From: Candidatus Cloacimonadota bacterium
GTDB lineage: Bacteria > Cloacimonadota > Cloacimonadia > G963667145
Reading direction: 5' to 3'
Length of the DNA: 64,000 bases
Assembly (NCBI GenBank): GCA_963667255.1
Contig: OY762940.1
Location: 1,523,897 to 1,587,896 of the forward strand
Shown one piece after another: positions 10,182-63,487 of this stretch; positions within the stretch are counted from its first letter, which is position 1; each line of letters begins with the position of its first letter. The notes under the pieces are model-generated. The model searched no databases. It was given only the letters and a program-made list of their open reading frames with translations, and was not told the DNA's origin. The position numbers and the translations under genes are program-made.

Positions 10182-10601
10182 ATGAAAATAAGTGCAAGAA
10201 ATTTGTTGAAAGGCAAAATCGCCTCAATCGAAAAAGGTGCCGTTAACTCCGAAGTTGTTTTGGAATTAGACGGCGGAACCCCCATCACAACTATCATCAC
10301 CAATAAATCCGTGGACAATTTGGCGATTTCCGTTGGCTCTCCAGCTATGGCTATCATCAAGGCCACTCATGTCATCATCGGCACAGGCGATGCCAAACTA
10401 AGTGCTAGAAATATTTTAGCTGGAAAGGTTGCCGGCATAGAAGTTGGAGCTGTTAATACGGAAGTGAGTGTTGAAATTGGCGGAGGAAATGTGATTACCG
10501 CTATGATTACCAAAAAATCTGCCGAAAATTTGGGATTGGCAAAAGGAAGCCCGGCCAAAGCTATTGTGAAAGCTTCCTCAATTATTTTGGCAGTTGACTA
10601 A
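10182..10601 (+). CDS. di-TOBE/Mop molybdate-binding protein (ModG-like)
   Basis: Two SARN...GAVN.EV...IT..S...L...G repeats; AGGAG RBS. Confidence 0.93.
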   Translation: MKISARNLLKGKIASIEKGAVNSEVVLELDGGTPITTIITNKSVDNLAISVGSPAMAIIKATHVIIGTGDAKLSARNILAGKVAGIEVGAVNTEVSVEIGGGNVITAMITKKSAENLGLAKGSPAKAIVKASSIILAVD

Positions 10602-18838: not shown

Positions 18839-19300
18839 GTGGCAAAATACACTAAATTAGAAGAAAAAATCTCCGCAATGGAGAATAGAACTAATTTGGT
18901 TGAAATTTTACAATTTGCTCAAAAGGAGTTTTCCTACCTTTCATCAGAAACTCTGCAAAAAATCTCCGAGCTTACCAACATACCACTTACTCAAATATTC
19001 AGCGTTGCGTCTTACTACAGAAAGTTCAGACTCAATCCTGTGGGGAAGCACATTATCAAAATTTGCGAAGGGATGTCTTGCTATGTGAATGGTGCTGCCA
19101 AAATTAAACAAGCCGTGCTTTCCCATCTAAAAATAAAAGAAAACGAAATGAGCAAAGATAAATACTATTCCGTGGAGAAAAGTTTTTGTCTCGGATGTTG
19201 CACGCAATCGCCGATTATGATGATTAACGATAAGATTTACAGCAAACTTACTCCCGATGCAGTCGGCGAGATTTTGGATAAATTCAGAGCAAACCACTAA
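18839..19300 (+). CDS. NuoE/HydC-like [2Fe-2S] thioredoxin-fold protein
   Basis: VASYY, ICEGMSC...CLGCC..SP. Confidence 0.85.
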   Translation: MAKYTKLEEKISAMENRTNLVEILQFAQKEFSYLSSETLQKISELTNIPLTQIFSVASYYRKFRLNPVGKHIIKICEGMSCYVNGAAKIKQAVLSHLKIKENEMSKDKYYSVEKSFCLGCCTQSPIMMINDKIYSKLTPDAVGEILDKFRANH

Positions 19301-20124
19301 TGCTAATAGATAATTGCGGACGCGAAATCAACTATATCAGATTATCGCTGACGGACAAATGTAATTTTTGTTGTCGATATTGCCGTGAAGAAAACGGCGT
19401 TCCCGACATTCCTCATCAAAATGTTCTCAGCTTAGAAGAGATGTTCCAAATAGTCAAAGAGTTTGTCAGCCTTGGAGTAACTAAGGTCAGACTGACAGGC
19501 GGTGAACCTTTGGTAAAGAAAAATTTTCTCTGGTTGGTAAAAAAACTAGGGAAACTGGAAAATTTAAAAGATTTGTGCATCACCACCAATGGCTCTCTTT
19601 TCCCCAAATATGCACAAGAACTAAAAGATGCAGGAGTGAACAGGGTAAACTTCTCCCTCGACACATTAGACCCTGACAAATTCAGATATATTACCAGAAA
19701 CGGAAATTTAGAAGATGTCTTAGCCGGAATCAAAACCGCTCAAAAGCTCGGATTTTCACCCATCAAGATTAACACTGTTCTAATAAAAGGGTTTAACGAT
19801 TCGCCTGAAGACCAAGCCAAGATGAAAAAATTTTGTGAAGACCAAAACATAATCGGCAGAACTATCAAAGAGATGTGTCTGGAAAACGGCTCTTTTGAAG
19901 CGTTAATCACAAACGAAAAAGACACAACCGCAGGGGTTTGTCATAAATGCAACAAGCTCAGAATTACTTGCGACGGGAAAATTCTCCCCTGCCTTTTTTC
20001 TGACATCTCCATAGATATTCGCCAAAAAAAATCGATAAAAACAGCCATTTATAAAGCGTTAAAGCTCAAGCCAAAATCCGGCGAAAGCAATTCAAATTAC
20101 AAAATAAATCAAATCGGAGGATAA
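19300..20124 (+). CDS. moaA: GTP 3',8-cyclase MoaA (short form)
   Basis: YIRLSLTDKCNFCCRYC, RLTGGEP, CHKCNKLR...PCL, C-terminal IGG. Confidence 0.85.
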   Translation: MLIDNCGREINYIRLSLTDKCNFCCRYCREENGVPDIPHQNVLSLEEMFQIVKEFVSLGVTKVRLTGGEPLVKKNFLWLVKKLGKLENLKDLCITTNGSLFPKYAQELKDAGVNRVNFSLDTLDPDKFRYITRNGNLEDVLAGIKTAQKLGFSPIKINTVLIKGFNDSPEDQAKMKKFCEDQNIIGRTIKEMCLENGSFEALITNEKDTTAGVCHKCNKLRITCDGKILPCLFSDISIDIRQKKSIKTAIYKALKLKPKSGESNSNYKINQIGG

Positions 20125-47525: not shown

Positions 47526-49277
47526 CTACTCTTCCCAACACCACTTTGCATCTGGTTTGCTAAACGAGCGATTGACAATATCGGGATTGTAATCTTGTTT
47601 ATAAAATTTTTTGTAAAATTCTTGGGCACCTTTGAGCATATCAAAATCAAAAATATGCGGATAAAGTTTTTGAGCAATGAACATAATTCCCAAAATTATT
47701 CGCGGAGAACCAAAGTCCCAAACCTTTGGAACAAGAAAAATATTTTGATTTTTTTTGGCTTTTATTTGCAAATTGCTTTTCTCCAATTTATTGTAAATAG
47801 CCGATAAATCATCAGCCAAAAATCCTGAAATGAAAATGAAATCGGGGTTTAAACTTTCTAACTCCTTGTCTAAAATAAGAAACCCGGGGCGACTTTTTTT
47901 CTCGGCTATAGTTTTATTCAAACTTATTCCGCCTGCCAATTCCACCAATTTATTCTCCAATCTCTCCGATTTCAAAACAAAATTTGGCTGTCCCATACAA
48001 TACAAAACTTTTTTTCGCTCACTTTTTGGAGGGATTTTTTCGGCTATTAAGTCCAACTTTGCCCTAAAATATTTTGTCAAATCTTGAGCCTCTTTTCCCC
48101 TATCCAACAAAATCCCAAATTTTTCTATCAATTTCAAATATGCTTCCACATCTTGCAATTGTTCGTGAAAATCTTTGAAATTTTCTATCTTCAACATCGT
48201 TTGCCAAAGTTTAATCATCTTGCTGTGTTTGGTCTCTTGCAAGGCGATAGCAATCGCTTCCATCATATCCAAAGCTCTGGTAAATGGATAACCTCCGCTA
48301 AAACCGGACTCACTGAAAATTTCTTCGTTTGGCAAATTCGCACCAACAATATTTTTGGAGCAATTGTCGCACTTGGATAAATCAAGGGAAACGGATCTCA
48401 CTTTTGCTCCCATCGGACCGTAAAAATCCCTTTTGTATAAGAGATTGCCACACTCTTTGCAAGCAGTATTCAGCAAGTCCGTTCCCGGAGAATTAAACAA
48501 ATATACAAAATCCAAAATCGATTTTAACTCCTCGACAAATTTTTCCGACTCATAAATGGAAGGCTCAAATTGCGGAAGAGAATCTTCCAAAGGAATAAAT
48601 CGCATTAACTGAAGTGGAATAGATTTACTCAAATTGGCAATTTCACAAGCGGTTTCCTTCAAACTTGCTTCACTTCCTTTGCTGTGAATAACCGCAATTT
48701 CCACATGAACACCCTTTTCATAAGCAGAGAGAATATTGGAAAAAACTGCCTTTTTCTCTGCCAAATTGGAATAAGCTTTTACTCCGAAATTTATAAAATC
48801 AAGATATGGCAAAAGTTTGGCAAAAGCCGTTTGAGTAAACAAAGCATTGCTCGCACAACCGATTTTCAAATTGTGCTTTTTCGCCTCCCGAGCAAGTGCC
48901 AAAAAAGTATAAAAAGAAGCGATTGGGTCGTTTATCAAAAAAGTGATGCCCAAACATTTTTCTTCCATTGCTTTTTGGACAATTTCCTTTGGCGAAAAGT
49001 GATAAAGAAAATCCTCGTTCCCCGCAATTCCTTTGGCGATAATTTTGGCAACACAGCCTTTGCAATTTAGATTGCAGCCGAAAGTGGTAACCTGAAAAAA
49101 TCTGCCTTGCGGATAATAGTGCAACATCGGCATAGTTTCGATGGAAATCGGACAACAAGTCAAATATCTGTCAGGAAATCGCTCCTTTATCTCACTTCCG
49201 TCAAAATAGTAATTTCCGCACCTCCCGTAAGATTTTTCGCTTAGCTCACAGCCAAACACACAAATATCACATTTCAT
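47526..49277 (-). CDS. radical SAM protein (AmmeMemoRadiSam/PFL-activase-like) fused to a C-terminal class III binding-protein domain
   Basis: CDICVFGC...GRC, GCNLNCKGC (CX3CX2C), CKECG; C-terminal LVELAGG...LNPDFIF...WDFGSPRIILG...LYP. Confidence 0.85.
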   Translation of the reverse strand: MKCDICVFGCELSEKSYGRCGNYYFDGSEIKERFPDRYLTCCPISIETMPMLHYYPQGRFFQVTTFGCNLNCKGCVAKIIAKGIAGNEDFLYHFSPKEIVQKAMEEKCLGITFLINDPIASFYTFLALAREAKKHNLKIGCASNALFTQTAFAKLLPYLDFINFGVKAYSNLAEKKAVFSNILSAYEKGVHVEIAVIHSKGSEASLKETACEIANLSKSIPLQLMRFIPLEDSLPQFEPSIYESEKFVEELKSILDFVYLFNSPGTDLLNTACKECGNLLYKRDFYGPMGAKVRSVSLDLSKCDNCSKNIVGANLPNEEIFSESGFSGGYPFTRALDMMEAIAIALQETKHSKMIKLWQTMLKIENFKDFHEQLQDVEAYLKLIEKFGILLDRGKEAQDLTKYFRAKLDLIAEKIPPKSERKKVLYCMGQPNFVLKSERLENKLVELAGGISLNKTIAEKKSRPGFLILDKELESLNPDFIFISGFLADDLSAIYNKLEKSNLQIKAKKNQNIFLVPKVWDFGSPRIILGIMFIAQKLYPHIFDFDMLKGAQEFYKKFYKQDYNPDIVNRSFSKPDAKWCWEE

Positions 49278-50298
49278 CTTCCACCTCCATAAACTTTTTT
49301 ACCTCAAAATCTATTTTTTGCCCCAATCTGATTTTTTGGCGAATTTGGGAAATTTTGTCATCTATAAATTGCAAATAAGCCACATTTTTTCGTTCTTTTT
49401 CTTGGCAGGAAATTTCGCCGATTATTCCACCATTTTTGATGATTAACCTTTTATCTGCCATCAAAGCTAAAATAGGGTCATGAGTGGACATCAAAACAAT
49501 TTTCCCCTTTTTCACCAGCAATTCCAAAGCTTTTTTTCGGTCAATTCCGGCATTTTCAATTTCGTCGATAAGAACGATGGGAGACTTGCTCAAAAGTGCC
49601 GTGTCGGCTATCATCAAAGCCCGAGATTGCCCACCACTAAGCTGAGTAAGAGAAGTTGTAGCCGAAAACTTTTCTCCAGAAAGTTCGTTGGCACACTCAA
49701 CTATCGAATTGAGCAAATTTTGGCAATTGTTCACCATTCTGCTTTGAATATGCAAGAGCAAAAACTCTTCCACGGTCAAATCCATCACAAAATTCATATT
49801 TTGAGAAAGTTGAGCCACGAGTTTGCCCGAAAAATTCAATTTCATATTTTTACAGGGAACTTTGCCATTTACCAAAATTTTTCGGTTTGTTATCGTATCG
49901 CCTTGAGTCAAAAGCTCTACATCGGCAAGCAATCTGCTTTTCCCCGAGCCTGTTGGTCCTACTATGCTAACAATTTTCCCTGCAACAAAATCCACTTTAT
50001 CAAATTCGTTTTTGCCGTCTTTGTCTCTTCCGCCTATCAAAGTGATGCTCTTAATTTGCTCTTCGGAATTTTCTTTGATTAACTCCTGCATTTTTCGCAA
50101 ATATTCCCCAAAACGAGGAAAAATATCATTTTTTTCAATGGAACAAGCTTCCAATTGCTCTTCACTCAAATTTTCCAAATATTGTTCGAAAGTTAAAGCA
50201 TTTTCTGCAAGAGGCAAACCGAGATTAACAAAAAAATCTTTGGCAAATTCGTTTTCGGCAAAAATTGTTTCCAACTTTAGGTTTTCAAAGTTTTTCAT
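49267..50298 (-). CDS. ABC-type ATPase with N-terminal extension, no cognate permease
   Basis: GPTGSGKS, LSGGQ, LIDEIE, STHD; ATG 50298 overlaps the upstream TGA. Confidence 0.88.
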   Translation of the reverse strand: MKNFENLKLETIFAENEFAKDFFVNLGLPLAENALTFEQYLENLSEEQLEACSIEKNDIFPRFGEYLRKMQELIKENSEEQIKSITLIGGRDKDGKNEFDKVDFVAGKIVSIVGPTGSGKSRLLADVELLTQGDTITNRKILVNGKVPCKNMKLNFSGKLVAQLSQNMNFVMDLTVEEFLLLHIQSRMVNNCQNLLNSIVECANELSGEKFSATTSLTQLSGGQSRALMIADTALLSKSPIVLIDEIENAGIDRKKALELLVKKGKIVLMSTHDPILALMADKRLIIKNGGIIGEISCQEKERKNVAYLQFIDDKISQIRQKIRLGQKIDFEVKKFMEVEDEM

Positions 50299-50978
50299 AT
50301 TTGCATCTTCTTTATGTTGCCATGCTGAAAATCTTTGCCGATTCTTTTTTCGCCCAAACAATACGAACAAACACTCATCGGCACAGAAAACCGCAATCTT
50401 GTGCCATACAAATTTTCCACTTCTTTGGCTTGAAGCAAAAATTCACTAAAATTGGCAATTCCTTGACCACTAATGCCATTGACACTCAAAATCGCTGCTT
50501 GCGGATTTGATTGCCTGACTTTGAAATAAAAAACTTCTCTTTCCGCTTGGGAAACGATGTCGCCTTTGGTGATTACAACCACATCGGCAAATTTGAGCAT
50601 TGGTCCGATTTTCGCCGGAGTGTTAATCCCCGAAAGATTGTCTATCACACACACCGACAAAAATTCTCTGATATGCGGAGAACAGCGATTGCAAAGTCCA
50701 GCACTTTCGCAAATCAGATAGTCAAATTTATTTTCTTTGCCCCAAGCCACACAATCTTCAATATTGGTAACGAAATAGTGGTCTGGACACAAAGCACCTG
50801 CCAAACCAACCTTACAAGCAAAGCCGTTTTTTTCGTATTCTTCGTTGTCAAAAGTCGATAAACAATCAAATTTCACAATGCCGACCTGAAGTTTTTTCTC
50901 TCGCAAAAGAATTGCTGATTTTATCAAAACGGAAGTTTTCCCTGATGACGGAGGTCCGGCTATGGTTATCAATCTCAT
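50295..50978 (-). CDS. G3E-family GTPase (HypB/UreG/CobW-like)
   Basis: GPPSSGKT, CPDH, ESAGLCNRC, TKGD, C-terminal CSYC. Confidence 0.85.
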   Translation of the reverse strand: MRLITIAGPPSSGKTSVLIKSAILLREKKLQVGIVKFDCLSTFDNEEYEKNGFACKVGLAGALCPDHYFVTNIEDCVAWGKENKFDYLICESAGLCNRCSPHIREFLSVCVIDNLSGINTPAKIGPMLKFADVVVITKGDIVSQAEREVFYFKVRQSNPQAAILSVNGISGQGIANFSEFLLQAKEVENLYGTRLRFSVPMSVCSYCLGEKRIGKDFQHGNIKKMQI

Positions 50979-52156
50979 TTTTTTCCCCAAGCACTTTCAA
51001 AAATTTTGACTACCGTCTCTTTCAATAAACCCATATCCTGATTTTTTACATAATCCCAACCAAGCCATTTCAAGCGAACTTCATTTTTGTTTTTCACAAG
51101 CTTATTCATAAAGGGATAACAATTGTTCGCTGCAAATTTTCCGAACTCTCCGCCTGTCAAAGCCTCAACGAAAACCGCCAATCTTTGCTTGGCTTCCTTT
51201 TTTATCAGGCAATACAAAGGGCTGATAATAGCTCCATCTTTCGGCCAAAAAATTTCCAAATTGTCTTTGCTTCGACAATTTTCCGCAAAAAACCAAGGAA
51301 GAATGTAAATTGCTGCAGTTTCTTCACTTTGACCAACTGCTACTTTGGCAATTTTGGAAGGATGAAAAATCGCTTTCACATTTTTCGCCAATTTTTTCAC
51401 CCCCTCTTGCCCTTTGTCCTTAAAAATATAAAGTGGCAACAAATAGGGAATTTCATTTTCATGACCAGACAAAATTATATTGCTTGTATAGCATTCCTTG
51501 AGCAAATCTTCCCATTTTTCTATGCTTGGCAAAGTAGCAAATTTTCGCTTGTCCAACACCATCACATAAGGAGTTGCTCCATACATAGTATATTCATCAT
51601 CGACAAAATCTATCTGCCGAAACTTTTCTTCCGCCTTATTTTGATTGAGCGAACTAAAATATCCTTTTCCGATAAATTTCTCCAAAAATGGCTTTTCCAA
51701 ATAGTCGCCAATACCCATTGCCGCAAAAAAATCGGGAAACTCGTTTATATCGTCCATTAACCAAAATTTTTCCGATTTGACTACTCCAGTGCATTCTCCC
51801 GGGACAAAATAGTTAAATTTTTCGTCAGAATTTGCAAGCACTTGATTTAAAACTTCTTTGAACTTTTTTCGCAAAGGACACACCATATAAGCAAAAAAAT
51901 CCAATTTGCCGCTGTAAGTTTCGCCGTCTTCGCTCAACTCCTGCTCATTCAATTTTTCGTTCAGATTTTTGACAAACTCAGCCACATTAACAGATTTTAT
52001 TTTCAGCAATGTTTCCAAGCTCATGTCCTTGCCAGTTTTTTTCAAAATCTCTTCGGCAGAAAGTCCTTCAAACCCCAAATTGGCAAACATTCCTCCAAAT
52101 TTATCAAACTCGGATAAAACCTTTTCCAAGCTCATTTCTTTATTAATTTTTTTCAT
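50975..52156 (-). CDS. signal-less solute-binding-fold protein with DUF1858-like N-terminus
   Basis: INKEMSLEKVL...F..LGF N-terminus; WEDLL, WPKDGAIISP class II SBP motifs; no signal peptide. Confidence 0.7.
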   Translation of the reverse strand: MKKINKEMSLEKVLSEFDKFGGMFANLGFEGLSAEEILKKTGKDMSLETLLKIKSVNVAEFVKNLNEKLNEQELSEDGETYSGKLDFFAYMVCPLRKKFKEVLNQVLANSDEKFNYFVPGECTGVVKSEKFWLMDDINEFPDFFAAMGIGDYLEKPFLEKFIGKGYFSSLNQNKAEEKFRQIDFVDDEYTMYGATPYVMVLDKRKFATLPSIEKWEDLLKECYTSNIILSGHENEIPYLLPLYIFKDKGQEGVKKLAKNVKAIFHPSKIAKVAVGQSEETAAIYILPWFFAENCRSKDNLEIFWPKDGAIISPLYCLIKKEAKQRLAVFVEALTGGEFGKFAANNCYPFMNKLVKNKNEVRLKWLGWDYVKNQDMGLLKETVVKIFESAWGKK

Positions 52157-52176: not shown

Positions 52177-53226
52177 TTATGGATTTTGGTGTTTGAGCAT
52201 TTTCTCAGCTTGCTCTCTACTCAAATCATAGCGAAAAAATTGCCGATAAAATTTTTGCACTTCACCTATCATATCAAAGTCTGCAAACAATTCGGGGTTG
52301 AGAATTTTTGCCATCCATTGCAACATCAAAATACTTTGCACTCCAAAATCCCAAAACATCGTCCCCGTAGGCACAATATAAACCTGTTTATTTTTGATAG
52401 CGGAAACTTGAGCCAATCTTTCATTTTGATAAATACGCCTGACAATCTCTTCGGGAGTCACTTTTTCCATCGAACCGACATTATCCAAAAAAATCATATC
52501 GGGATTCATTTTGATCAATTGCTCCACATTTACTTTTGATTTTACCACACCGGAAATGCCTTTACTAACATAACTTCCACCAGCCAAAGCCACAATTTCT
52601 GGGAGATGAGTTCCTTTCCCCGCAGTCCAAAAAATATCTTGAGTAGCAAAATAGATTTTTTCCTTCTTATCTTGCGAAATATTTTTGGTTCTTGATTTTA
52701 CAAACTCAACTCTGCTATCAAAATATCGGGCATAATCTTGAGCAATTTTAACTTGCTTTTTGCCTAAAATTTGGGCATAAACCATCAACAAATTTTTCAC
52801 ATCATCAAAATCGGAAGAAAAAGGATTGCCTACAGATATGATTTTCATTCGCTTCATTTGGAACAAAAGTTTTGGTTTATCCCAATAAAAAACCGCTTGC
52901 AAATCCTCATCAAGCAAAGTTTCCATATTTAGATTTGTATGTGGCGAGCTAATGCTTTTCACCTTCTCCAAATTTTGATAAACAAGATTCGACCACGGAA
53001 AAGCAGTTTTATGCAAATCGGCACAAAGCACAATTTTATCCTCAGCATCCAGCAAATAAATTTTTTCGTAAGATGGAGTGTAAAGAGCGGCAACTCTCTG
53101 CACTTTGCTTTCAATTTCAATGACTTTGCCATCAATATTTTTTATGCTTTTGGCAAAACTAAACGATACAAAAAGCAAACAAACAAGCAAAGCAAACAGC
53201 TTATTTACTTTTGAAAAATTATCCAT
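52177..53226 (-). CDS. class III (BtuF/FecB/MolA-like) periplasmic binding protein
   Basis: Signal peptide; ALAGG, NVEQLIKMNPD, AIKNKQVY, WMAKILNPELF. Confidence 0.9.
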   Translation of the reverse strand: MDNFSKVNKLFALLVCLLFVSFSFAKSIKNIDGKVIEIESKVQRVAALYTPSYEKIYLLDAEDKIVLCADLHKTAFPWSNLVYQNLEKVKSISSPHTNLNMETLLDEDLQAVFYWDKPKLLFQMKRMKIISVGNPFSSDFDDVKNLLMVYAQILGKKQVKIAQDYARYFDSRVEFVKSRTKNISQDKKEKIYFATQDIFWTAGKGTHLPEIVALAGGSYVSKGISGVVKSKVNVEQLIKMNPDMIFLDNVGSMEKVTPEEIVRRIYQNERLAQVSAIKNKQVYIVPTGTMFWDFGVQSILMLQWMAKILNPELFADFDMIGEVQKFYRQFFRYDLSREQAEKMLKHQNP

Positions 53227-53828
53227 AAGCCTCTCTCATCGTTTATCATCTCAAACTCAATTCCCAAAGTTTTGACAATCCCTGCGATGAACTCGCCTGA
53301 CTGGTCGGCTCTGATTTTTTTGATTTTGTTTTGCCAAGCATTCCCCGACCGCTCTTTCATCTGTTGATGGACTTTTTCTTTCAATTCTCCTGAACCAAAA
53401 CCGCATCCAAAATAAGCCCAACCACCTTTTGCCAAAACTCGATAAATTTCGGAAAATGCCTTTTGCTTCTGCTTCCAAAACCACAGCGAACCGCGGCTTA
53501 TCACCAAATCAACGGAATTATCCGCCAAAGGAATATTCTCCACATTTGCAAGAAGATAAGAAAATTTATCTCCATAATTTTGCTCTTTGGCAATCTCTAT
53601 TGCCTCAGGGTCAACATCTAATAAAATGAACTTCAAATCTTCGGCTCTATCTGAAACTGCTTTTGCCAAAAATCCTCCCGAACTTCCCAAATCCAAACAT
53701 AACCCCTTGCTAATCTTCGTCTTATCAAGGATTTGCCCTGCAATCAAATCGTAACAAGGCAAAAAAACCTGAGTGGCTATTTCAAAAAAACCTCTTGCAC
53801 CTTTTTCCATATTTTTATCTTCAATCAT
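53205..53828 (-). CDS. class I SAM-dependent methyltransferase
   Basis: CLDLGSSGG, NIPLADNSVDLVISRGS, EIYRVLAKGG. Confidence 0.92.
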   Translation of the reverse strand: MIEDKNMEKGARGFFEIATQVFLPCYDLIAGQILDKTKISKGLCLDLGSSGGFLAKAVSDRAEDLKFILLDVDPEAIEIAKEQNYGDKFSYLLANVENIPLADNSVDLVISRGSLWFWKQKQKAFSEIYRVLAKGGWAYFGCGFGSGELKEKVHQQMKERSGNAWQNKIKKIRADQSGEFIAGIVKTLGIEFEMINDERGLWIIFQK

Positions 53829-53831
53829 AAA

Positions 53832-54890
53832 TTATTTCCTCTCACTTCCCAACAAAATCTCATCGATTTCATCATCACTTAACATTTTGTGATAAAAGAG
53901 CTTATATATTTTTTTCACTTCAGCTTTCACATCATAATTAAAATATTTGGGATAAAGCAAATTGGAGAGCCAAACAATACCCGAAATACGATTGATTGAC
54001 GGAGGTCTGTCGCAAAAATTAAAAGGCTTGTAAGGGATTTTGTAAACTTGCTTATTTTCAACTGCTTTCACTTTTTCCCACAAAGAGTTGGAATAAATTT
54101 TGCTATAAAAATCTCCATCGGAATTGAAACCTTGGTCAATGCAAACAATAATCATCTCAGGGTTCCAATTCATTATCTGCTCCATACTAACAGTGGCTCT
54201 GCCGTAGCCTTTCATTTTTTTGACTTTGGCAACATTGATACCGCCCACAAATCTCAAAACTTCTGTATGCAAAGAGCCTTCAGGGTCGGTTTCCAAACCT
54301 TCATTACCCTCGGCATAATAAACTCTTATCTTTTCATTTTCAGGAATTTTTGCAACAATTTTCTTGGTGCGGTCTAACAAATCTTGAGTATAATCGGCTA
54401 AAATTTTAGCTCGTTTTTCTTCGCCCAAAAGTTCGCCCAATTTCTTATAAGTTTGCGGAATACTCATCAGCGAACCATCTAAAAGAATAACCGGAATGCC
54501 CAATTTTTTTTCCAAGCGGTCGGCGGCAGATACATAAAAATCACTCACATCGCCCATGGAAATCGCCAAATCACAACCAACTTGAATAACCGCCTCACAA
54601 TTCGTCTTATTATCTTTGCCAAAATCACCGCCAAGCAAAGGCAAATTTTGATAATATTGCGAAAGATAGAGCTTCTCATTTGCTGAAATTTTCGTGTTCA
54701 ATCCGCCCAACTTTTTCTCATTCAAAGAGTAAATGAAATATGTTCCAATCGGACTGGTGGAAAAAACCTTTTTCACCTTTGCGGGAATTTCCCTCGTTCT
54801 GCCAGCATCATCGGTAAAAGTTCTGCTTTTGGCAGATAAAAAAACAAAACTTGCCAATATCAAAATTATTGAAATTAATTTTCTTCTCAT
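53832..54890 (-). CDS. class III periplasmic binding protein
   Basis: Signal peptide; FTDDAGR, YYAEG, SMEQIMNWNP, DRPPSINR. Confidence 0.92.
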   Translation of the reverse strand: MRRKLISIILILASFVFLSAKSRTFTDDAGRTREIPAKVKKVFSTSPIGTYFIYSLNEKKLGGLNTKISANEKLYLSQYYQNLPLLGGDFGKDNKTNCEAVIQVGCDLAISMGDVSDFYVSAADRLEKKLGIPVILLDGSLMSIPQTYKKLGELLGEEKRAKILADYTQDLLDRTKKIVAKIPENEKIRVYYAEGNEGLETDPEGSLHTEVLRFVGGINVAKVKKMKGYGRATVSMEQIMNWNPEMIIVCIDQGFNSDGDFYSKIYSNSLWEKVKAVENKQVYKIPYKPFNFCDRPPSINRISGIVWLSNLLYPKYFNYDVKAEVKKIYKLFYHKMLSDDEIDEILLGSERK

Positions 54891-54902: not shown

Positions 54903-55958
54903 TTATTTTCTAATACTTCCATCTAAAATGGCATTGACTTCTTTACTATTTAACTCTCTATGATAAAAGAGTTTATAGAATTTCTTAACTTCTGCTTTTA
55001 TATCGTAATCAAAATACTTGGGATAAAGCAAGTTGGACAGCCAAACTATGCCGATAATTCTATTGGTGGACGGCGGACGATCAAAAAAATTGTAAGGCTC
55101 ATAAGGAATTTGATAAACTTGCTTATCTTTTATCGCTTTGACATTTGTCCACAATTGGCTTTTGAAAACCTTTTCAAAAAAATCACCTTTGTTGAAACTT
55201 CGTTTGTCCGTGCAGGCGATTAGCAATTCGGGATTCCAATTCAACACCTGCTCCATAGAAACTTTGGCTCTGCCATAGCCTTTCACGGCTTGCACTTTGG
55301 CAACATTGATGCCGCCCACAAAATCCAAAAGTTCACTATGCACCGAACCACTTGGGTCAGTTTCCAAGCCATCGTTCCCTTCCGCATAATAGGCTTTTAC
55401 CCGTTTTTCTTCAGGAATGTTTGCGGCAATTTTTTTGGTTCTTTCCAAAATTTCTCGACTATAATCCGCCAAAAGTTTGGCTCGCTTTTCTTCTCCCAAA
55501 AGTTCGCCCATCTTCAAATAACTCTCATCAATTTTGTCGATATTCACATCAAAAACCAAAACGGGAATCCCCAATTTCTTTTCCAAAGCATCGGCGGAAA
55601 TTTTGGATTCTTCGCAGATATTCCCAAAAGACAACACTACATCTGTTTTCAATTTTATGATTTGCTCATAGTTGGTGGTATTTGTTCTACCCCCAAAATT
55701 ACCACCCAAAATGGGAAGTTGGCAAAAAGAGCGAAGAAGATATTTTTTCTCTTTTTTAGTCGCTGCATAGTTCAAACCGGTAGTTTTTTGAGGTGCCAAA
55801 CAATACAAATAAATCGTTCCCAAAGGATTGGACGAATAAACTTTTTTCACTTCCAGTGGCACTTTTTTAGTTCTGCCACACATATCTGTAAACATTCGCT
55901 CGGCTGAAAACAACAAAGAAACTCCGAGCAAAAGCACAAAAATCATTATTTTTTTCAT
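54903..55958 (-). CDS. class III periplasmic binding protein (tandem paralog)
   Basis: Signal peptide; FTDMCGR, YYAEG, SMEQVLNWNP, DRPPSTNR. Confidence 0.92.
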   Translation of the reverse strand: MKKIMIFVLLLGVSLLFSAERMFTDMCGRTKKVPLEVKKVYSSNPLGTIYLYCLAPQKTTGLNYAATKKEKKYLLRSFCQLPILGGNFGGRTNTTNYEQIIKLKTDVVLSFGNICEESKISADALEKKLGIPVLVFDVNIDKIDESYLKMGELLGEEKRAKLLADYSREILERTKKIAANIPEEKRVKAYYAEGNDGLETDPSGSVHSELLDFVGGINVAKVQAVKGYGRAKVSMEQVLNWNPELLIACTDKRSFNKGDFFEKVFKSQLWTNVKAIKDKQVYQIPYEPYNFFDRPPSTNRIIGIVWLSNLLYPKYFDYDIKAEVKKFYKLFYHRELNSKEVNAILDGSIRK

Positions 55959-55980: not shown

Positions 55981-56754
55981 TTACATTATGGGCATACAGC
56001 TTCGATAAACTTTGCCCTCAAGCTCAAAATCCATAATCTTCACGGTAATTCCGTAAATTTTCTCCATATTTTCCTCTGTAATCACAAGGCTGGCTTTATC
56101 ATAGCAAATTAGCGAACCTTCAAACATTATGGCGACTTTGGACGGACAAAGAAAAGCATGATTGGGAAAATGCGAAGTCATAATGATGGTTCTCCCTTGT
56201 TTTGAAAGTTCTTTAATTTTGTTCAAAATCTTTATTTGATTGCCAAAATCGAGATTGGAAGTCGGCTCGTCCAAAACCAAAATGTCCGTCTGTTGAGTCA
56301 GCACTCTGGCAATAAGAGCCATCTGTCTCTCTCCACCACTGATTTGGTTGTAGTTGCGGTCTTTCAAATGAGCAATGCCCATCATCTCCAAAGAGTTCTC
56401 GGCAATTTTATAATCTTTTGCAGAGGGCGAAGAGAAAAACCCCAAATGACTATTTCTACCCATCACCACCACATCTAACACCGAAAAAGCAAAAGGAGTG
56501 TTGTGAGCCTGCGGAACATAACCAATTTTTTGGGCAATCTGCTTCCTTTTGCAATCACACATACACATATCGCCAAGATAAACTTCGCCATGATGCATTT
56601 TGAGAAAGCCCAAAAGTGTCTTAAAATAAGTGGTTTTCCCCGTGCCATTAGGACCAAGCACACAAACGATTTCGCCCTTTTCCACCTTCATGTTGATTTT
56701 TTCCAAAACGGTTCTATTTCCATAACCGCAGGACAAATTATTTACTTTTAGCAT
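55981..56754 (-). CDS. ABC transporter ATP-binding subunit (FecE/MolC-like)
   Basis: GPNGTGKT, ISGGERQ, LDEPTSNLD; ATG 56754 overlaps the permease TGA. Confidence 0.95.
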   Translation of the reverse strand: MLKVNNLSCGYGNRTVLEKINMKVEKGEIVCVLGPNGTGKTTYFKTLLGFLKMHHGEVYLGDMCMCDCKRKQIAQKIGYVPQAHNTPFAFSVLDVVVMGRNSHLGFFSSPSAKDYKIAENSLEMMGIAHLKDRNYNQISGGERQMALIARVLTQQTDILVLDEPTSNLDFGNQIKILNKIKELSKQGRTIIMTSHFPNHAFLCPSKVAIMFEGSLICYDKASLVITEENMEKIYGITVKIMDFELEGKVYRSCMPIM

Positions 56755-57794
56755 CAAAAATTTTCTTTCTTGTTTTTGAATAAGAGATAGAGGAAAAATG
56801 GACCACCAATAAGCGAAGTCAAGATTCCCAAAGGAATTTCCACACTCGCTATATTCCTGGCAAAATTGTCCACTATCAAAAGGAAAACACTGCCCAGCAA
56901 AGCGGAAGCAGGAATCACATATTTGTAATTTTGACCCACAATATACCTGCACATATGTGGCACTATCAAGCCAACCCAACCTATCATTCCGCAAATGGAA
57001 ATGGAAGCAGCCGTCAACAATGTCGTGCCAAAAATTATTACCATTCTCAGAGTTGAAGTCGGTATCCCCATCGACTTGGCTTCGTCATCGCCAAAAGCCA
57101 ACAAATTGATTTTCCAGCTGAGCAAAACCAAAGGGACAAAACCGATTGTCAAAGGAATGATAATCAAATAAATGTCTAAAGCGGTTACCGAAGACAAAGA
57201 GCCCATCAGCCAAAAAGTGATCGCAGGGAGCTTGCTATCGGGGTCAGCCATATATTTAGTCAACGATATAAAAGCAGTGAACAAACTGCTCACCACCATT
57301 CCCGTAAGAATCATCGTCAAAGTTATATTTCCTTTTCTGGCAAGCAACTGGCTACCACAAAAAGTTATCAAGACAGCTAACAACCCGAAAGCAAAAGCAC
57401 TTATTTGGATGAGAACAAAATTACAGGAGAGAAGTATCGCCAAAGCTGCTCCAAAGCCTGAACCAGCAGCAGCTCCCAATATGTTTGGAGAAACCATTGG
57501 ATTGCGAAACACTCCCTGACTTGCGGCTCCCGCCATAGACAAAGCACCGCCCACCAGCATTGCAGCTGTTATTCTGGGCAATCGAACTAACAAAACCACA
57601 GTTTGAAAAACTTTGTTTACCTCGATGTTCAATATTCCTAATTTGTTGAGCAACACTTTTGCCACATCTAAAGGAGAGATGAAAAATCTGCCCAGAACCA
57701 AAGAAGAAAAGAAGACAATTACCAGAGCTACAAGAATAATAGAAATCTTCGCTCTGGGCGATTTTTTAATTAGGAGTTTTTCATACTTAGTCAT
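56754..57794 (-). CDS. FecCD/BtuC/MolB-type permease
   Basis: VRLPR, QGVFRNPMVSP, ITFWLMGS, GDDEAKSMG, GWVGLIVPH. Confidence 0.95.
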   Translation of the reverse strand: MTKYEKLLIKKSPRAKISIILVALVIVFFSSLVLGRFFISPLDVAKVLLNKLGILNIEVNKVFQTVVLLVRLPRITAAMLVGGALSMAGAASQGVFRNPMVSPNILGAAAGSGFGAALAILLSCNFVLIQISAFAFGLLAVLITFCGSQLLARKGNITLTMILTGMVVSSLFTAFISLTKYMADPDSKLPAITFWLMGSLSSVTALDIYLIIIPLTIGFVPLVLLSWKINLLAFGDDEAKSMGIPTSTLRMVIIFGTTLLTAASISICGMIGWVGLIVPHMCRYIVGQNYKYVIPASALLGSVFLLIVDNFARNIASVEIPLGILTSLIGGPFFLYLLFKNKKENF

Positions 57795-57805: not shown

Positions 57806-58705
57806 CTACAAACTATATACTAATTTCAAAAACAATTTAAAATCAGGCTCCAAGCCACAATAATCATAGTGCCTATATATCGGAAATTCGATACTGGCAT
57901 CATAACTCAAATCCGACCATATTCTGCCACCAACACCAAAAAGCCAATCTACAGTTTTGCTTCCATCATTTTGAGTAGCACCATCAGTCTTGCTATCTGC
58001 CACAATAGTTCCGGTCAATTCAGTTTTGGCACTCATATATTTAAGAAAATATCTCGTATAAGATAAAGTGCTACTCCTCTCATCTCCATCTTTTTCTTTG
58101 CGATTCCCTTCGGCAGCAATCCTATAAGAACTCGAAACAAAGAAATTATTTCGACCAAAATCTTTCCTCAATTTCAACTCCAATCTATTAGCAAAAGCAC
58201 CTTGCCCAATATCCATCATATACGGTTTTGTTGAGCTTACTGGCGAAGAACTGGTATTATCCTTACCAGTTGGCAAAGTGATGCTATAAAAAGCAGCCAA
58301 AGCCCAAGGCTCAGCAGTCTTTTGAGCCCAAAGCCCATATTCAAAAAACACTTGAATATCAGCCAAACCAAAATTATCGTCTTTACCAAACTTTGTTTCA
58401 ACATGCTTATGAGCGACAGGAATTTGAAGTTTAGCACTAATGTTATGCCCAAAACCATGACGAAGCATCAAATTTTCTCTCCACATCGTCACTGCTTGAT
58501 TCATTGGGTTAGTTTCCTTAGTAGAACCCTTGTAATAGTTCTCTTTTTTAAAATACATTGTTTTAGAAATAAAAATCGTTTTCCCCTTAGGCAAAATCAA
58601 ACCCTTGAACGGATTTGGACAATTCGGGTCTTTTACTTCTTGTGCCATCAAAATTTGGCACATACTCATTGCTGTGAGAGCAATCACTAACAACATCTTT
58701 TTCAT
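57806..58705 (-). CDS. outer-membrane 'transporter'-type beta-barrel (SphA/MetA-pathway-like)
   Basis: AGGAG RBS, signal peptide, GLADI...LPTG...IGQG pattern, C-terminal LVYSL. Confidence 0.65.
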   Translation of the reverse strand: MKKMLLVIALTAMSMCQILMAQEVKDPNCPNPFKGLILPKGKTIFISKTMYFKKENYYKGSTKETNPMNQAVTMWRENLMLRHGFGHNISAKLQIPVAHKHVETKFGKDDNFGLADIQVFFEYGLWAQKTAEPWALAAFYSITLPTGKDNTSSSPVSSTKPYMMDIGQGAFANRLELKLRKDFGRNNFFVSSSYRIAAEGNRKEKDGDERSSTLSYTRYFLKYMSAKTELTGTIVADSKTDGATQNDGSKTVDWLFGVGGRIWSDLSYDASIEFPIYRHYDYCGLEPDFKLFLKLVYSL

Positions 58706-58728
58706 TTTTTCTCCTACATTTATATTTT

Positions 58729-58752
58729 CGATATTTTTTGCAAAGTATAACG
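58729..58752 (-). promoter_or_regulatory. ModE-like box 1
   Basis: Minus strand CGTTATACT-TTGCAA-AAAATATCG, 24 bp; dyad extends into flanking TTTT/AAAA. Confidence 0.7.
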
Positions 58753-58793
58753 AAAAAATAAAACCATTGCTCCCCAGAAATAATTTTACTTCC

Positions 58794-58817
58794 GGATATG
58801 TTTTTGAAAGTATATCG
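58794..58817 (-). promoter_or_regulatory. ModE-like box 2, just downstream of TTGACA (58828-58823)
   Basis: Minus strand CGATATACT-TTCAAA-AACATATCC, 24 bp; near repeat of box 1. Confidence 0.7.
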
Positions 58818-58906
58818 ATTTGTGTCAATACACTTTTCCAAAATTTTTATTTTTTTACACTGGAACTTTTTAGAACTTACTCATCTAAAAACAGATGTAA
58901 TCTTTT

Positions 58907-59533
58907 TTACGATGAAAAGTATTGAAAAATATTTACCTCATGCTGACACGCCATCAGAAACGAGAGCTCCATTTTCTTGCGAACAACCGCATCAGTTTTT
59001 TGCCAATTCTTATCGATAATCTGCACAAATCGAGAAATATATTCTGCATACGGCTCGCCAGAATATGTAGAGATAAAATCTTGATACTTGTTACTTCCTA
59101 CGCTCTCTGCAACCAAAAATTTCCCCAACTCCGCATATAGTAAATAGCACGGCAGAAAGGCAGTTATAGCCACCTCATAGCTTTCGATTTTTAGTTGCGT
59201 TTCCAAAAACATCCTGTAAATCAAAAAATTGGGTAGCTCAATTTTTGAACTGGCAACTCCGAACGAGGAGAAAAACTTTTCCTGCATCTCCGTCTCTATC
59301 TGCAAACAATCTTGCCTCATCTCCTCAAAAAAGAGCCTTTCTTTTTTGCTTTTTGCCAAGTTGGAAAGCTGACGAAAATGGTCTGCTTCTTTTCGCAAAT
59401 ATAAAGCATCTTGGGATAAATATTCCTGAAATATTTTTACAGGCAACTCTCCACTTACCAATTTTTGCACGAACTCACACGACTTGATTTCAGCCAAATA
59501 AGGCTCTGCCAACTTATAAAAATCAATCGTCAT
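58907..59533 (-). CDS. tenA: thiaminase II / TenA family
   Basis: YLSQDALYL, FLPCYLLY, YQDFISTYS, HEVNIF. Confidence 0.88.
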   Translation of the reverse strand: MTIDFYKLAEPYLAEIKSCEFVQKLVSGELPVKIFQEYLSQDALYLRKEADHFRQLSNLAKSKKERLFFEEMRQDCLQIETEMQEKFFSSFGVASSKIELPNFLIYRMFLETQLKIESYEVAITAFLPCYLLYAELGKFLVAESVGSNKYQDFISTYSGEPYAEYISRFVQIIDKNWQKTDAVVRKKMELSFLMACQHEVNIFQYFSS

Positions 59534-59535
59534 TT

Positions 59536-60342
59536 CTACTCCCAAAATTTGTGAAAATGATGAACCGGACCGTGTCCTTCTCCAAGAGTATAATCAGCTC
59601 CTACCTTGATAGCTTCGGACAGATATTCTCGTGCCAAGCAAACCGACTCCTTCAGCGAGTGTCCTTGAGCCAAAAACGCAGCCAAAGCCGACGAAAGCGT
59701 GCAACCTGTGCCATGCGTATTTTTCGTAGATAACCGCTTCGATTGAAGCAAATTAGCTTTCTTCTCCTCAAAATCGTAAAACACATCAACAAGTTCATCA
59801 TCCTGCAAATGACCAGCTTTCAACAAAACACTTACCTTATACCTCTCCGCCAACTCCAGAGCAAACTCTGGTAGTTGCTCTTGATTGGTAATTTTCTTAT
59901 CCAACAATATCTCCGCTTCGGGGATATTAGGAGTGATAATCCTCGCCAAAGGAATCAAGTCTTGTTGCAAACTGCAAATCGCCTCATCCTGCAAGAGTTT
60001 ATCTCCGGAAGTCGCCACCATCACAGGGTCTAAAACCACATTTTTGACAGCAAATTTGGAGAGCATCTCGGCAACAACCTTAATCACCTCGCTACTGTGC
60101 AACATCCCAATTTTAACGGCATCCGTGCCAATATCTTCCAAAACAGCAGAAATTTGCGAAGACAATATTTTTGCGGGTATCGGATGAATATCTCGAACTC
60201 CCAAAGTATTTTGAGCGGTAATCGCCGTGATGGCAGAAGTGGCAAAACACCCGCAAGCACTGATGGATTTGATGTCCGCCTGAATCCCCGCTCCACCTCC
60301 ACTATCGCTCCCCGCGATGGTCAACACTCTACGATATTTCAT
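59536..60342 (-). CDS. thiD: HMP/HMP-P kinase
   Basis: LTIAGSDSGGGAGIQAD, TAQNT, DPVMVA, HGTGCT. Confidence 0.96.
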   Translation of the reverse strand: MKYRRVLTIAGSDSGGGAGIQADIKSISACGCFATSAITAITAQNTLGVRDIHPIPAKILSSQISAVLEDIGTDAVKIGMLHSSEVIKVVAEMLSKFAVKNVVLDPVMVATSGDKLLQDEAICSLQQDLIPLARIITPNIPEAEILLDKKITNQEQLPEFALELAERYKVSVLLKAGHLQDDELVDVFYDFEEKKANLLQSKRLSTKNTHGTGCTLSSALAAFLAQGHSLKESVCLAREYLSEAIKVGADYTLGEGHGPVHHFHKFWE

Positions 60343-60343
60343 G

Positions 60344-61354
60344 TCATTCCCCTTTGTTAAAATGGTCAAAACCTTTAAATTTCAAATCAACAATTTCGCC
60401 GTTTTTTCGCCAAACGATTTTGTTCGGACAAGCACAAAGTTCGCCCACAATGTAAAAACTCTTGCCAAACTTTTTTCCGTAATCGTCCTGCAATTTGTGA
60501 ACTTCATCTCTCGCCACAGTAAATAGAAGCTCATAATCTTCGCCACCTGCCAAAGCCAAATCCAAAACCGACCAATTTTGCTCTGTGCAAACCTGCGATA
60601 ATTCCGCAGAGATAGGCAAATCGTCCAACCAAATCTCACAGCCCAAATCGGAAGCCTTGAGAATATGTCGCAAATCGGAAGCCAAGCCATCGGAGATATC
60701 CATCATGGCATGCACACAATCTCTTTTGCCCAAAAAAATCCCCTCAGTAACTTTCGGTTTAACATTGTTGTGGCTATCGACTAAAAATTTGCAATTGCCT
60801 TCAATTCCAATCTCTTGTAACAAGACTTGCAAACCTCCGGCGGAATCTCCCAAATATCCCGTAACGCAGACCAAATCTCCAAGCTGACTGGCAGAACGCA
60901 ATTTGGCTTTCCCCTTTGCCACCTTCCCTATCACGCACACATTGATAACGAATTTGTCCTTTGAGGAAGAGGTGTCTCCACCCAATAGTGGAATTTTGAA
61001 CTTTTCGGACAATTCGCGATACCCTCTCGTAAAATCCGTTAGATTTTCGGAATTGACTGATGACGGCACACCCAGAGACAAAAAAGAAGCGAAAGGAGTT
61101 GCTCCCATTGCAGCCAAATCGCTAAGATTGACCGCCAGAGATTTTTTCCCCAACTCATAAAAGCTAACCCTATCCAAAAGGAAGTGAACACCCTCCAAAA
61201 GCAAATCCGTGCTAACAACAAAATCTTCGTCCTCTCCCGCAGAAAAAACAGCACAATCGTCGCCAATTCCCTGCATTTCAGACGAACAAAGAGATGCAAA
61301 TTTTTTGGAGATGCTCTCTATGAAACCAAATTCGCCCAACTCTTTCAAACTCAT
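60344..61354 (-). CDS. thiL: thiamine-monophosphate kinase
   Basis: GIGDDCA, VNLSDLAAMG, GGDT, DISDGL, GGEDYEL. Confidence 0.96.
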   Translation of the reverse strand: MSLKELGEFGFIESISKKFASLCSSEMQGIGDDCAVFSAGEDEDFVVSTDLLLEGVHFLLDRVSFYELGKKSLAVNLSDLAAMGATPFASFLSLGVPSSVNSENLTDFTRGYRELSEKFKIPLLGGDTSSSKDKFVINVCVIGKVAKGKAKLRSASQLGDLVCVTGYLGDSAGGLQVLLQEIGIEGNCKFLVDSHNNVKPKVTEGIFLGKRDCVHAMMDISDGLASDLRHILKASDLGCEIWLDDLPISAELSQVCTEQNWSVLDLALAGGEDYELLFTVARDEVHKLQDDYGKKFGKSFYIVGELCACPNKIVWRKNGEIVDLKFKGFDHFNKGE

Positions 61355-61986
61355 TTTCTCTTACTCTTTGCGTTTCCCACAATCCTCTTGAGATTTTCGG
61401 CAACCAACCTGAGATTATTCGCAGACATTATCGCCGAAACAACAGCAACACCATCTGCTCCAGCCTCTATCACTCCGCTTGCATTCTCTTCATTAATCCC
61501 ACCGATAGCAACTCCGGGCAAGTTTGCCAAAGACGAAATTTCTTTCACACCATCCAAGCCGAGAGGCAACGAAATATCATCTTTAGTGTTCGTGGCAAAA
61601 ACAGGCGAAAAAGCGATATAGTCGATTGCTTCCAAATCCAAACACTGCTCGGCACTCTCAATGGACAAACCGATAATCTTGTCCTTGCCCAAAATTTTGC
61701 GAGCAACTGCACAAGGCAAATCCGACTGCCCAAGATGCACACCGTCAGCATCCACCGCCAAAGCAATGTCCAAGCGGTCATTTATGATAAGCGGAACTTT
61801 GAACTCTGCCAGCATTTTTTTCAAATCCATAGCCATCCGGTAAAACTGCAAACTGTCCGCCTTCTTCTCCCGCAATTGCACCATCGTCACACCGCCTTCC
61901 ACAGCTTGTCGCACAGTTGCCAAAAAATCTTTGCCCTGGAGCAAATCTCTGTCGGTTACCAAATACAAAGATAGGTCAAAATTCAT
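61351..61986 (-). CDS. thiE: thiamine-phosphate synthase
   Basis: LYLVTD, VQLREK, INDRLD, GVHLGQSD, AIGGI. Confidence 0.96.
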   Translation of the reverse strand: MNFDLSLYLVTDRDLLQGKDFLATVRQAVEGGVTMVQLREKKADSLQFYRMAMDLKKMLAEFKVPLIINDRLDIALAVDADGVHLGQSDLPCAVARKILGKDKIIGLSIESAEQCLDLEAIDYIAFSPVFATNTKDDISLPLGLDGVKEISSLANLPGVAIGGINEENASGVIEAGADGVAVVSAIMSANNLRLVAENLKRIVGNAKSKRK

Positions 61987-62783
61987 AACTCTCCCAAGCT
62001 CAATTTCCCTGCGGACAGCTGATAAAGCGTATCGATAAAAGCCACTTGGAAACTGCCAGAACCTTGCACTTTAGCTGATAGATAGCTTCCCACTTTGCCC
62101 ATCAACACGGTGCCGTTTACTACAGCCTGCAAATAATTTTCGTTCACTGCCAAAAACGCTCCCAGCAGAGCGGAAGCCGTGCAACCCATACCGGTTACTT
62201 TCGCCATAATCGCACTACCAGTATCGTTGTAAATCGTGCTCTCTCCATCCGTAACGATGTCCTGCTCTCCGCTCACAACCACCACACATTGCCGAGACGA
62301 AGCCAACAGCTTGGCGGACTCCAAAGCATCAACAGTGGAGTTGGCTGAATCAACACCTTTGCTCGCTACAGTCATCCCCGATAACGCCATAATTTCCGAA
62401 GCGTTCCCCCTGATAACAACAGGATTAACCCTGCTCAAAATCTCCGTTGCAACCTCGTTGCGATAGCTCGTCGCACCCACACCAACGGGGTCAAATATAA
62501 TCGGAATCGCCCGAGATTTTGCCTTTTCCCCAGCCACTATCATCGCCTCCACCCATTGCCTGCTGAGCGTGCCGATATTCAGCACCAAAGAAGAAGCGAT
62601 ACCAACCATCTCTTCCACCTCCTCCAAAGCGTGTGCCATCACGGGAGAAGCTCCAATCGCAAGCAGAGCGTTCGCCGTATTGTTCATCACCACATAATTG
62701 GTGATATTGTGCACAAGCGGAGCCGACTGCTTGATTTTCCACAAATCTTCGTTCAACAAAAATAGATTTCCCATAATAACCAC
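61983..62783 (-). CDS. thiM: hydroxyethylthiazole kinase
   Basis: PLVHNITNYV, GASPVMA, DPVGVGA, RGNASE, TGMGC. Confidence 0.96.
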   Translation of the reverse strand: MVIMGNLFLLNEDLWKIKQSAPLVHNITNYVVMNNTANALLAIGASPVMAHALEEVEEMVGIASSLVLNIGTLSRQWVEAMIVAGEKAKSRAIPIIFDPVGVGATSYRNEVATEILSRVNPVVIRGNASEIMALSGMTVASKGVDSANSTVDALESAKLLASSRQCVVVVSGEQDIVTDGESTIYNDTGSAIMAKVTGMGCTASALLGAFLAVNENYLQAVVNGTVLMGKVGSYLSAKVQGSGSFQVAFIDTLYQLSAGKLSLGEL

Positions 62784-63487
62784 TAACCTTTTTTAGCACA
62801 AATGGCGACATAATCTCCACAATCATAGCCGGCAATCGGCTCTTCTTGCACTACATTGGAATACAACGGATGTTTGGTAAGTGTCTGGGCAAACTCAAAA
62901 TCGGAAAATCCAGCTTCTTTCAACATCTCAATTTTCTCTTCAGTCGTTCGCCAATTGGCAACTTTAACCAACTCGAGAGGATACGGGTCTTGCGGATGTA
63001 TCCCCTGTAGCAACGAATGTTCCCAAGTCCCCAAACTCTTGGCAAGATTATACATAATCGCATAGGAACTCTCTTTGGGGACATCTATCACCACTATCTT
63101 CCCCCCAGATTTCAGAGCAGCATAACTCTTCGCAAAAGCCTTTTTCAAATCGGAGATATAACTCGGTGTGCCATTAAACAAAATCGTTTCGTATTCATCC
63201 TCTAGCAATTCCATCTCTTCAGCAGTCACGATTTTCACTTCCATCCCTCGTTTGCGGGCAATCTCCGCCATACTCACTGACGGCTCAATCCCGTATTTTA
63301 TATCAATATTGAAATTTTCGGATAGAATAGACTCAAAGATGCCACTACCACAACCAACAGAAAAAATCTTGGATTTTGCATCCAAAAAGTAGGCAACTAA
63401 TTTGGCTTCCGAATAAAGAAGATTTTGATTTTCCAAGAACCAAGCATCATAATCCGTAGCAAATTCATCAAACTTAAGATGCTTCAT
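62783..63487 (-). CDS. class I SAM-dependent methyltransferase heading the thi operon
   Basis: FDEFATDYDAWF, SVGCGSG, GIEPS; stop overlaps the thiM start. Confidence 0.88.
   Translation of the reverse strand: MKHLKFDEFATDYDAWFLENQNLLYSEAKLVAYFLDAKSKIFSVGCGSGIFESILSENFNIDIKYGIEPSVSMAEIARKRGMEVKIVTAEEMELLEDEYETILFNGTPSYISDLKKAFAKSYAALKSGGKIVVIDVPKESSYAIMYNLAKSLGTWEHSLLQGIHPQDPYPLELVKVANWRTTEEKIEMLKEAGFSDFEFAQTLTKHPLYSNVVQEEPIAGYDCGDYVAICAKKG

Follow-up and report, generated by a model that had tools for sequence, protein, structure and literature searches.

The twin 24-bp palindromes upstream of an 11-gene uptake operon in the window (the whole stretch of DNA analysed, 64,000 nucleotides) are very probably operators of the short ModE encoded in the same genome. 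As judged from the sequences, this short, sensor-less ModE probably represses the 11-gene operon, modABC and its own gene at Mo/W sufficiency, responding to an indirect signal. The genome of the window (G000, 1.59 Mb) was compared with the genomes of five congeners (G001 to G005).

Both boxes are located on the minus strand, in a 201-nt gap between tenA and the 11-gene run, which are on the same strand. By inspection of the sequence, the distal box is CGATATACTTTCAAAAACATATCC (58817-58794) and the proximal box is CGTTATACTTTGCAAAAAATATCG (58752-58729). They are 65 nt apart and identical at 19 of 24 positions, in agreement with the preliminary description. The distal box is self-complementary at 16/24 positions and the proximal box at 18/24. 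The distal box starts 5 nt behind the end of a predicted -35 hexamer TTGACA (58823-58828, minus strand), supported by the sequence and by word enrichment. The proximal box is in the predicted leader, and is followed by an AGGAG ribosome-binding site (58711-58715, minus strand) after 13 nt and by the ATG at 58705 after 23 nt. The reported placement of one box just behind TTGACA and of the other near the ribosome-binding site was thus confirmed. Within the 201-nt region, the two most similar 24-mers share 20/24 positions, a level attained by one of 500 dinucleotide shuffles. There are no letter differences in the box region in contigs from two of two sequencing runs, both from one study, which is perhaps the source of the window.

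The palindromic form CGNTAT...ATANCG with a length of 24 bp is seen in both boxes; the ends are CG/CG in the proximal box and CG/CC in the distal box. The available part of PMC545781 gives the E. coli ModE box as ATCGNTATATA-N6-TATATANCGAT. Among its 16 defined positions, the proximal box shows four mismatches and the distal box five. The scan with this generic consensus found 52 positions in G000 with four or fewer mismatches. Due to the loose fit and these equally good positions, the ModE consensus alone cannot establish the operator claim. There is no exact match to TATAT-N7-TAYAT in either box. The length and the CG-type ends given in the preliminary description are present, but the inner TATA of the E. 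coli form is not. Position 9 of the motif is T in all 22 half-sites, where the E. coli consensus has A, and position 10 is mostly T, leading to about CGATATWTTT-N4-AAAWATATCG. By their letters, the boxes are classed as a lineage variant (T-tract) of the ModE box, not as the E. coli form.

The matrix trained solely on the twin boxes of the window was scanned over the 1.59-Mb genome. The best match other than the boxes themselves is just before modA-modB-modC (C1:261050), where modA passes the TIGR01256 cut-off (81.4 against 62.5). The fourth precedes the sole ModE-family gene of G000 by 9 nt. The second and the third are not at Mo genes, and the one examined is inside a coding region. Matrix scoring against the genome, suggested earlier as a check, was thus informative with the two-site matrix, while the published consensus did not discriminate. 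When each of the four sites was left out in turn, it ranked first among the non-training positions, and the scores with the four-site matrix are 27.6-29.6 against 20.1 for the next position in G000. With a matrix made from the boxes of the modE promoters of G002 to G005, the four sites rank 1 to 4 among 153,871 intergenic positions (the proximal box first, the distal box third) and 1, 2, 5, and 12 genome-wide; since the G000 matrix had served to find these sites in the congeners, this held-out ranking is a test of consistency and not fully independent. With a matrix of ten canonical boxes from other phyla, the G000 sites rank 1, 3, 4, and 14 among intergenic positions, the proximal box being the first.

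The box is absent before the second modA, wtpA, moeA, moaA, moaC, modG, and the AOR operon, and at three regions of the xanthine-oxidase family. These boxless Mo/W promoters score -3 to 12 with the congener matrix, against 21.6-24.6 at the true sites. The suggested check of whether the motif precedes modABC or wtp genes was thus positive for modABC, but not for wtpA or the second modA.

TTGACA is found 1-6 nt ahead of the box in all three box-bearing promoters of G000. In 600 upstream regions of the genome, TTGACA and CTTGAC are the two most enriched hexamers, and TTGACA was seen 169 times against 50 expected. Further signals in 129 (C)TTGACA promoters are T at +22 (60%), A at +29 (57%), and A at +30 (53%); the -10 consensus is weak across G000. 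The distal box occupies +6 to +29 after the -35 hexamer, and would thus overlap the spacer, the -10 and the transcription start, which is predicted near 58794. The T at +22, present in 60% of the TTGACA promoters, is missing from all three box-bearing promoters, and the promoter position is therefore uncertain. No -10 was found behind TTGACA, as already stated in the preliminary description, and the sigma-70 scan of 58600-59100 did not find a minus-strand promoter. The Rfam search of the whole window revealed no riboswitch and only two tRNAs. A thiamine cluster (methyltransferase, thiM, thiE, thiL, thiD, and tenA; window 58907-63487, minus strand) ends 78 nt before the -35 hexamer. Because the terminator scan of 58600-59100 found none after this cluster, read-through into the operon is possible.

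The search of G000 for ModE found only one protein, of 123 aa (C1:1159799-1160170, with the stop codon at C1:1159799). The ModE-like helix-turn-helix regulator that was looked for is thus present in the genome. It matches TIGR00637 with 51 bits (E 1e-13), below the cut-off of 98.5. Its AlphaFold model (pLDDT 89) consists of the ModE winged helix and a long C-terminal helix, and all nine Foldseek matches with E<=0.001 are ModE structures. The N-terminal winged helix of ModE is thus recognized by Foldseek, with TIGR00637 remaining below its cut-off. The best sequence match in PDB is the 135-aa ModE of Agrobacterium (2IJL), and the orthologues are 122-135 aa long. There is no match to a Mop/TOBE domain at the modE locus, and the protein is not a full-length ModE; it belongs to the short type, in which a winged helix of about 110-135 aa stands alone and its gene is linked to mod genes. 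The tree of 30 ModE domains was not resolved. Without the TOBE domain, direct binding of the oxyanion is not available to this regulator, and its sensing is likely to be indirect. The repressor assumed earlier, a ModE bound to molybdate or tungstate, does not agree with the only ModE found. One query for a MobA-like partner found none in G000.

Among 40 relatives searched, orthologues of the regulator with 65-87% identity were observed in all five congeners, and of 232 genomes of the phylum, 8 contain it according to the family search. The box is upstream of the modE-like gene in every congener, and thus in 6/6 genomes when G000 is included; a TTGAC-type hexamer is 6-7 nt before this box in 5/5 congeners. 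The presence of a ModE-family gene, and of the motif before modABC and modE with conservation in the genus, supports the initial assignment as ModE-type operators. The modA gene directly follows modE in four of the five congeners, and in G001 the box is present at both modA copies. In the five congeners, modE and moeA are adjacent and divergent, while in G000 a run of riboflavin-synthesis genes from ribD (C1:1160542-1163967, plus strand) separates them. The first gene of the window operon and its GTPase were found in none of the five congeners, so the congeners offer no orthologous comparison for the twin sites. In G004, two identical strong boxes were observed at C1:1023840 and 992782. They precede an NMT1/SsuA-type ABC transporter and a gene remnant, not Mo genes, and both are beside insertion-sequence-like ORFs. 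They may belong to a further importer under Mo control or to a promoter that has moved, and they count against a purely Mo regulon.

G000 contains four xanthine-oxidase-family enzymes and one AOR as clients of Mo/W, and has no nitrogenases. A Moco/Tuco riboswitch (RF01055, 56.5 bits; C1:1091761-1091887, plus strand) is before the AOR operon. This operon encodes a ferredoxin-like protein, AOR, NuoE/NuoF-like subunits, and a MoaD/ThiS protein, and adjoins mobB, moeA, and wtpABC. A stand-alone di-TOBE (ModG/molbindin-like) gene is located in the window (10182-10601, plus strand). Its protein shows 154 bits against TIGR00638 (cut-off 55) and aligns to positions 123-260 of NF007957, the C-terminal half of E. 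coli ModE. The window also includes a short MoaA-like gene (274 aa; 19300-20124, plus strand), below the TIGR02666 cut-off, immediately after prfA and a NuoE-like ORF. A 10,889-aa open reading frame is present elsewhere in G000 (C1:526171-558840, plus strand).

All genes of the operon behind the twin boxes are on the minus strand of the window. The first gene (57806-58705) encodes a likely outer-membrane channel of the MetA-pathway/transporter family (PF13557, E 6e-5; Atlas 0.98); its single-sequence fold was uninformative (pLDDT 31). It is followed by a FecCD/BtuC-type permease (56754-57794; PF01032, E 3.7e-82), an ABC ATPase (55981-56754; PF00005), and two periplasmic binding proteins of the Peripla_BP_2 family (PF01497). 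The closest structures to binding protein 1 (54903-55958) in PDB are 4PAG and 4OVK, followed by MolA (3PSA, E 3.9e-18), and that to binding protein 2 (53832-54890) is 4PAG (E 7.5e-55). Then come a SAM-dependent methyltransferase (53205-53828; PF08241), periplasmic binding protein 3 (52177-53226; PF01497), a DUF1858-like and SBP_bac_6 protein (50975-52156; PF13343, E 2.9e-56, with PF08984 just below the cut-off), a CobW/HypB/UreG-type GTPase (50295-50990; PF02492, with TIGR00073 below the cut-off), and a second ABC-type ATPase (49267-50298; PF00005). A fusion of radical SAM and Peripla_BP_2-like domains (47526-49277; PF04055, PF13353, and weak PF01497) is likely the last gene of the operon.

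A paralogous operon of five genes (C1:584890-580465, minus strand) is divergent from xdhC. The two operons show 63-83% identity in the first gene, permease, and methyltransferase. Their promoters can be aligned, and each box of the paralogue is 23 bp, 1 nt short. The proximal one alone still scores well, and it alone stands out in the scan for 23- and 25-bp variants of the motif. These 23-bp boxes are either decayed or retuned.

T-rich boxes are also seen beside ModE-like genes in unrelated genomes. One, with a score of 23.9, is just downstream of a 109-aa ModE (L229). Another, with a score of 25.0, is at 2409 of L239, just upstream of a gene (1468-2391, minus strand) that encodes a fusion of a MobA-like NTP-transferase domain with a ModE-like helix-turn-helix; xdhC follows this gene. 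Similar MobA-like/ModE-like fusions of 290-320 aa occur in several loci. By its domain composition, such a fusion is a candidate for a one-component cofactor sensor.

Relatives of the operon were collected through its GTPase (79 loci from the best 80 of 128 confirmed stretches). The genus matrix found a site in none of these 79 distant loci, while permuted matrices found 0-2. Canonical boxes with four or fewer mismatches, the threshold chosen first, are present in 8 of the 79 loci, a number also attained by two permutations in a set of 50 and by two in a set of 200. Under the threshold of three or fewer, picked afterwards as were all stricter ones, 6 of the 79 loci contain 10 sites; none of 200 permuted consensuses reached six loci (mean 0.4, maximum 3). 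Twin canonical boxes 65 and 67 nt apart precede the FecCD permease in two Chlorobiaceae loci, and a single box is present in a third. All three of these genomes have a ModE above the family cut-off. As the three loci are kin, they were counted as one lineage. A Moco riboswitch is before the module in three loci (L083 and L084, two copies in one genome, and L138) and before an adjacent modA in a fourth.

A Mo/W gene, box or riboswitch accompanies 12 of the 38 loci with a permease or binding protein, against 5 of the 41 loci without. There is none of these in 62 of the 79 loci from the best 80 stretches, many of the loci being cut short. Mo/W genes are present in 12 of the 79 loci, against a baseline of 8-10% of G000 genes, and this excess is only modest. 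In the own phylum, 27 other genomes have the GTPase, and neither FecCD genes nor a convincing box was found in any of the 20 that were fetched. A trio of DUF1858, GTPase, and ATPase genes occurs there without transporter genes in a recurring context (L174-L193). Since the trio is present without transporter or box, it has other uses.

Repression, which we infer from the position of the boxes, would proceed as follows. RNA polymerase would be blocked jointly by two dimers: one on the region after TTGACA that spans the spacer, the -10 and the start, and the other on the leader, at a distance of 65 nt (about six helical turns) downstream. As the regulator lacks an oxyanion pocket, the signal would be indirect, which is the weakest step of the proposal. 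It would most likely be the status of the pterin cofactor (Moco/Wco), transmitted via a partner in cofactor synthesis. Indirect sensing is suggested by the moeA neighbourhood, the MobA-like/ModE-like fusions such as that of L239, and a reported result in Agrobacterium. The short ModE there is reported to bind to two Mo-boxes and to require Moco synthesis.

The promoters of the operon, modABC, and the regulator share the boxes, and the operon is therefore likely under Mo/W control. It is likely to be a back-up route for some Mo/W species, not an ordinary iron importer. It is possible, though doubtful, that it belongs to a widespread and hitherto undescribed system for scavenging and processing complexed Mo/W species (a metal chelate or the pterin cofactor), which would have come, on independent occasions, under the control of ModE boxes, in a twin arrangement with a conserved 65-nt spacing, and of Moco riboswitches; the sensor-less ModE of this genus would read cofactor status through MoeA. 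Such a system would combine a channel or TonB receptor, a BtuCD-type importer, and several binding proteins with a cytoplasmic module of GTPase, ATPase, methyltransferase, and radical-SAM proteins.

It is unlikely that the boxes are ModE operators while the operon imports iron or another metal for the clusters of Mo/W enzymes, or while ModE activates it. The domain labels of the operon are of iron/B12 type, comparable operons are called iron transport by their authors in the available parts of PMC12327845 and PMC11725836, and lysine K221 among the MolA ligand residues is aligned with serine in binding protein 1. However, the NCBIfam iron/B12 equivalogs are all far below their cut-offs for the operon proteins, and a Mo/W cargo would explain at least as well why different phyla use ModE boxes or Moco riboswitches for control. 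The -35 hexamer and the box are separated by a variable distance (1, 5, 6, or 7 nt), as would be expected for occlusion more than for activation. It is quite improbable that the short ModE senses free molybdate or tungstate through a separate TOBE protein, either ModG-like or the TOBE domain of ModC. This would rescue the oxyanion-dependent repression of the preliminary description, and it is favoured by the existence of the di-TOBE protein of the window, which aligns to the C-terminal half of ModE. But the gene of this protein was found in only one of the five congeners, whereas the regulator and the box are in all five; it is not preceded by a box, and modE is ~370 kb away.

The binding of another transcription factor to the motif, with a secondary likeness to the ModE box, is very unlikely. 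The inner part of the motif is a T-tract/A-tract and not TATA, and one congener has sites before non-Mo genes. Against this, the box directly precedes the modE gene in all six genomes, and the T-rich variant appears beside ModE and the MobA-like/ModE-like fusion in the unrelated genomes of L229 and L239. There is hardly any probability that the similarity is functionless, due to chance or to duplication of AT-rich sequence at the locus. The generic consensus fits the 52 genome positions as well as it fits the better site, and 7 of the 252 intergenic regions of G000, including that of the window, hold a pair of 24-mers with at least 19 identities. Yet only the 24-mers recur, at the distant modA and modE promoters, and both the ranks of 1-4 in the held-out scan and the leave-one-out ranking argue against chance. 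The preferred reading remains that of operators for the short ModE.

Under this reading, the regulon marked by the boxes is small and clean, with modABC, the regulator, and one 11-gene operon under a sensor-less ModE, and the boxes give independent evidence that a common "iron ABC transporter" module of anaerobes belongs to Mo/W supply. The operators themselves are an ordinary kind of site. The locus is of value as a compact test case in two respects, a ModE that lacks the sensor and a transporter whose label as iron uptake is probably wrong. ModE boxes, DNA-binding-only ModE, ModE at "Fe ABC" clusters, Tuco riboswitches, and a molybdate-repressed type II importer are already in print. The literature search, with most subscription journals outside it, found no description of this operon or of the motif variant.

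The regulator and its boxes can be compared with three ModE systems. The E. coli ModE box has the same 24-bp core, equally spaced CG ends, and TAT at positions 4-6, and E. coli ModE has the same winged-helix fold and a box at the modA promoter. The G000 system differs in the T at position 9 and mostly at position 10 of the motif and in the lack of tandem Mop domains. A single-domain ModE was noted in Desulfovibrio, and its signal was called an open question in the available part of PMC545781. The short ModE of A. tumefaciens (2IJL) is similar in size (135 aa against 123 aa) and likewise has no sensor domain; the lineage of G000 is distinct in its own motif variant and in the divergence of modE from moeA in 5/5 congeners. 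In M. acetivorans, as described in the available part of PMC12327845, ModE binds upstream of "Fe ABC transporter" clusters, ma1234-1224 was shifted in EMSA, and DNA binding was unresponsive to molybdate in vitro. As far as that part goes, the regulon resembles that of G000 in molybdate transporters, "Fe ABC transporter" clusters, likened to the window operon by description, and a radical SAM gene. In contrast to G000, the motif is RTTATGT-N8-RCATAAY, one Mop subdomain is kept, and the regulon is tied to nitrogenases (PMC12327845, same part), which are absent from G000.

The operon itself can be compared with two transport systems. MolBC-A of H. influenzae is a type II importer of molybdate/tungstate, and molB is repressed by molybdate (PMC4031551, available part). 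Both systems include a FecCD-type permease and a Peripla_BP_2 protein, MolA being the third PDB match of binding protein 1, and Mo control of the window operon is suggested by its boxes. The ligand residues of MolA are K221 and R264 (bioRxiv 10.64898/2026.10.15.759412, available part). When MolA is locally aligned to binding protein 1 (with an inferred offset of the numbering), Ser stands in place of K221, and Lys, beside a gap, in place of R264. As K221 is not kept, the operon is not classed as MolABC. It also differs from MolBC-A in having three binding proteins, a GTPase, a second ATPase, a methyltransferase, a radical SAM protein, and a likely channel. According to the available part of PMC11725836, Tuco riboswitches control "Fe" ABC operons in E. 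limosum, where fetABC1 increases when W is limiting. The fetABC1/2 operons, likened to the window operon by their description in that part, are thus also "Fe ABC-type" transporters wired to the status of the tungsten cofactor, but their control is RNA-based.
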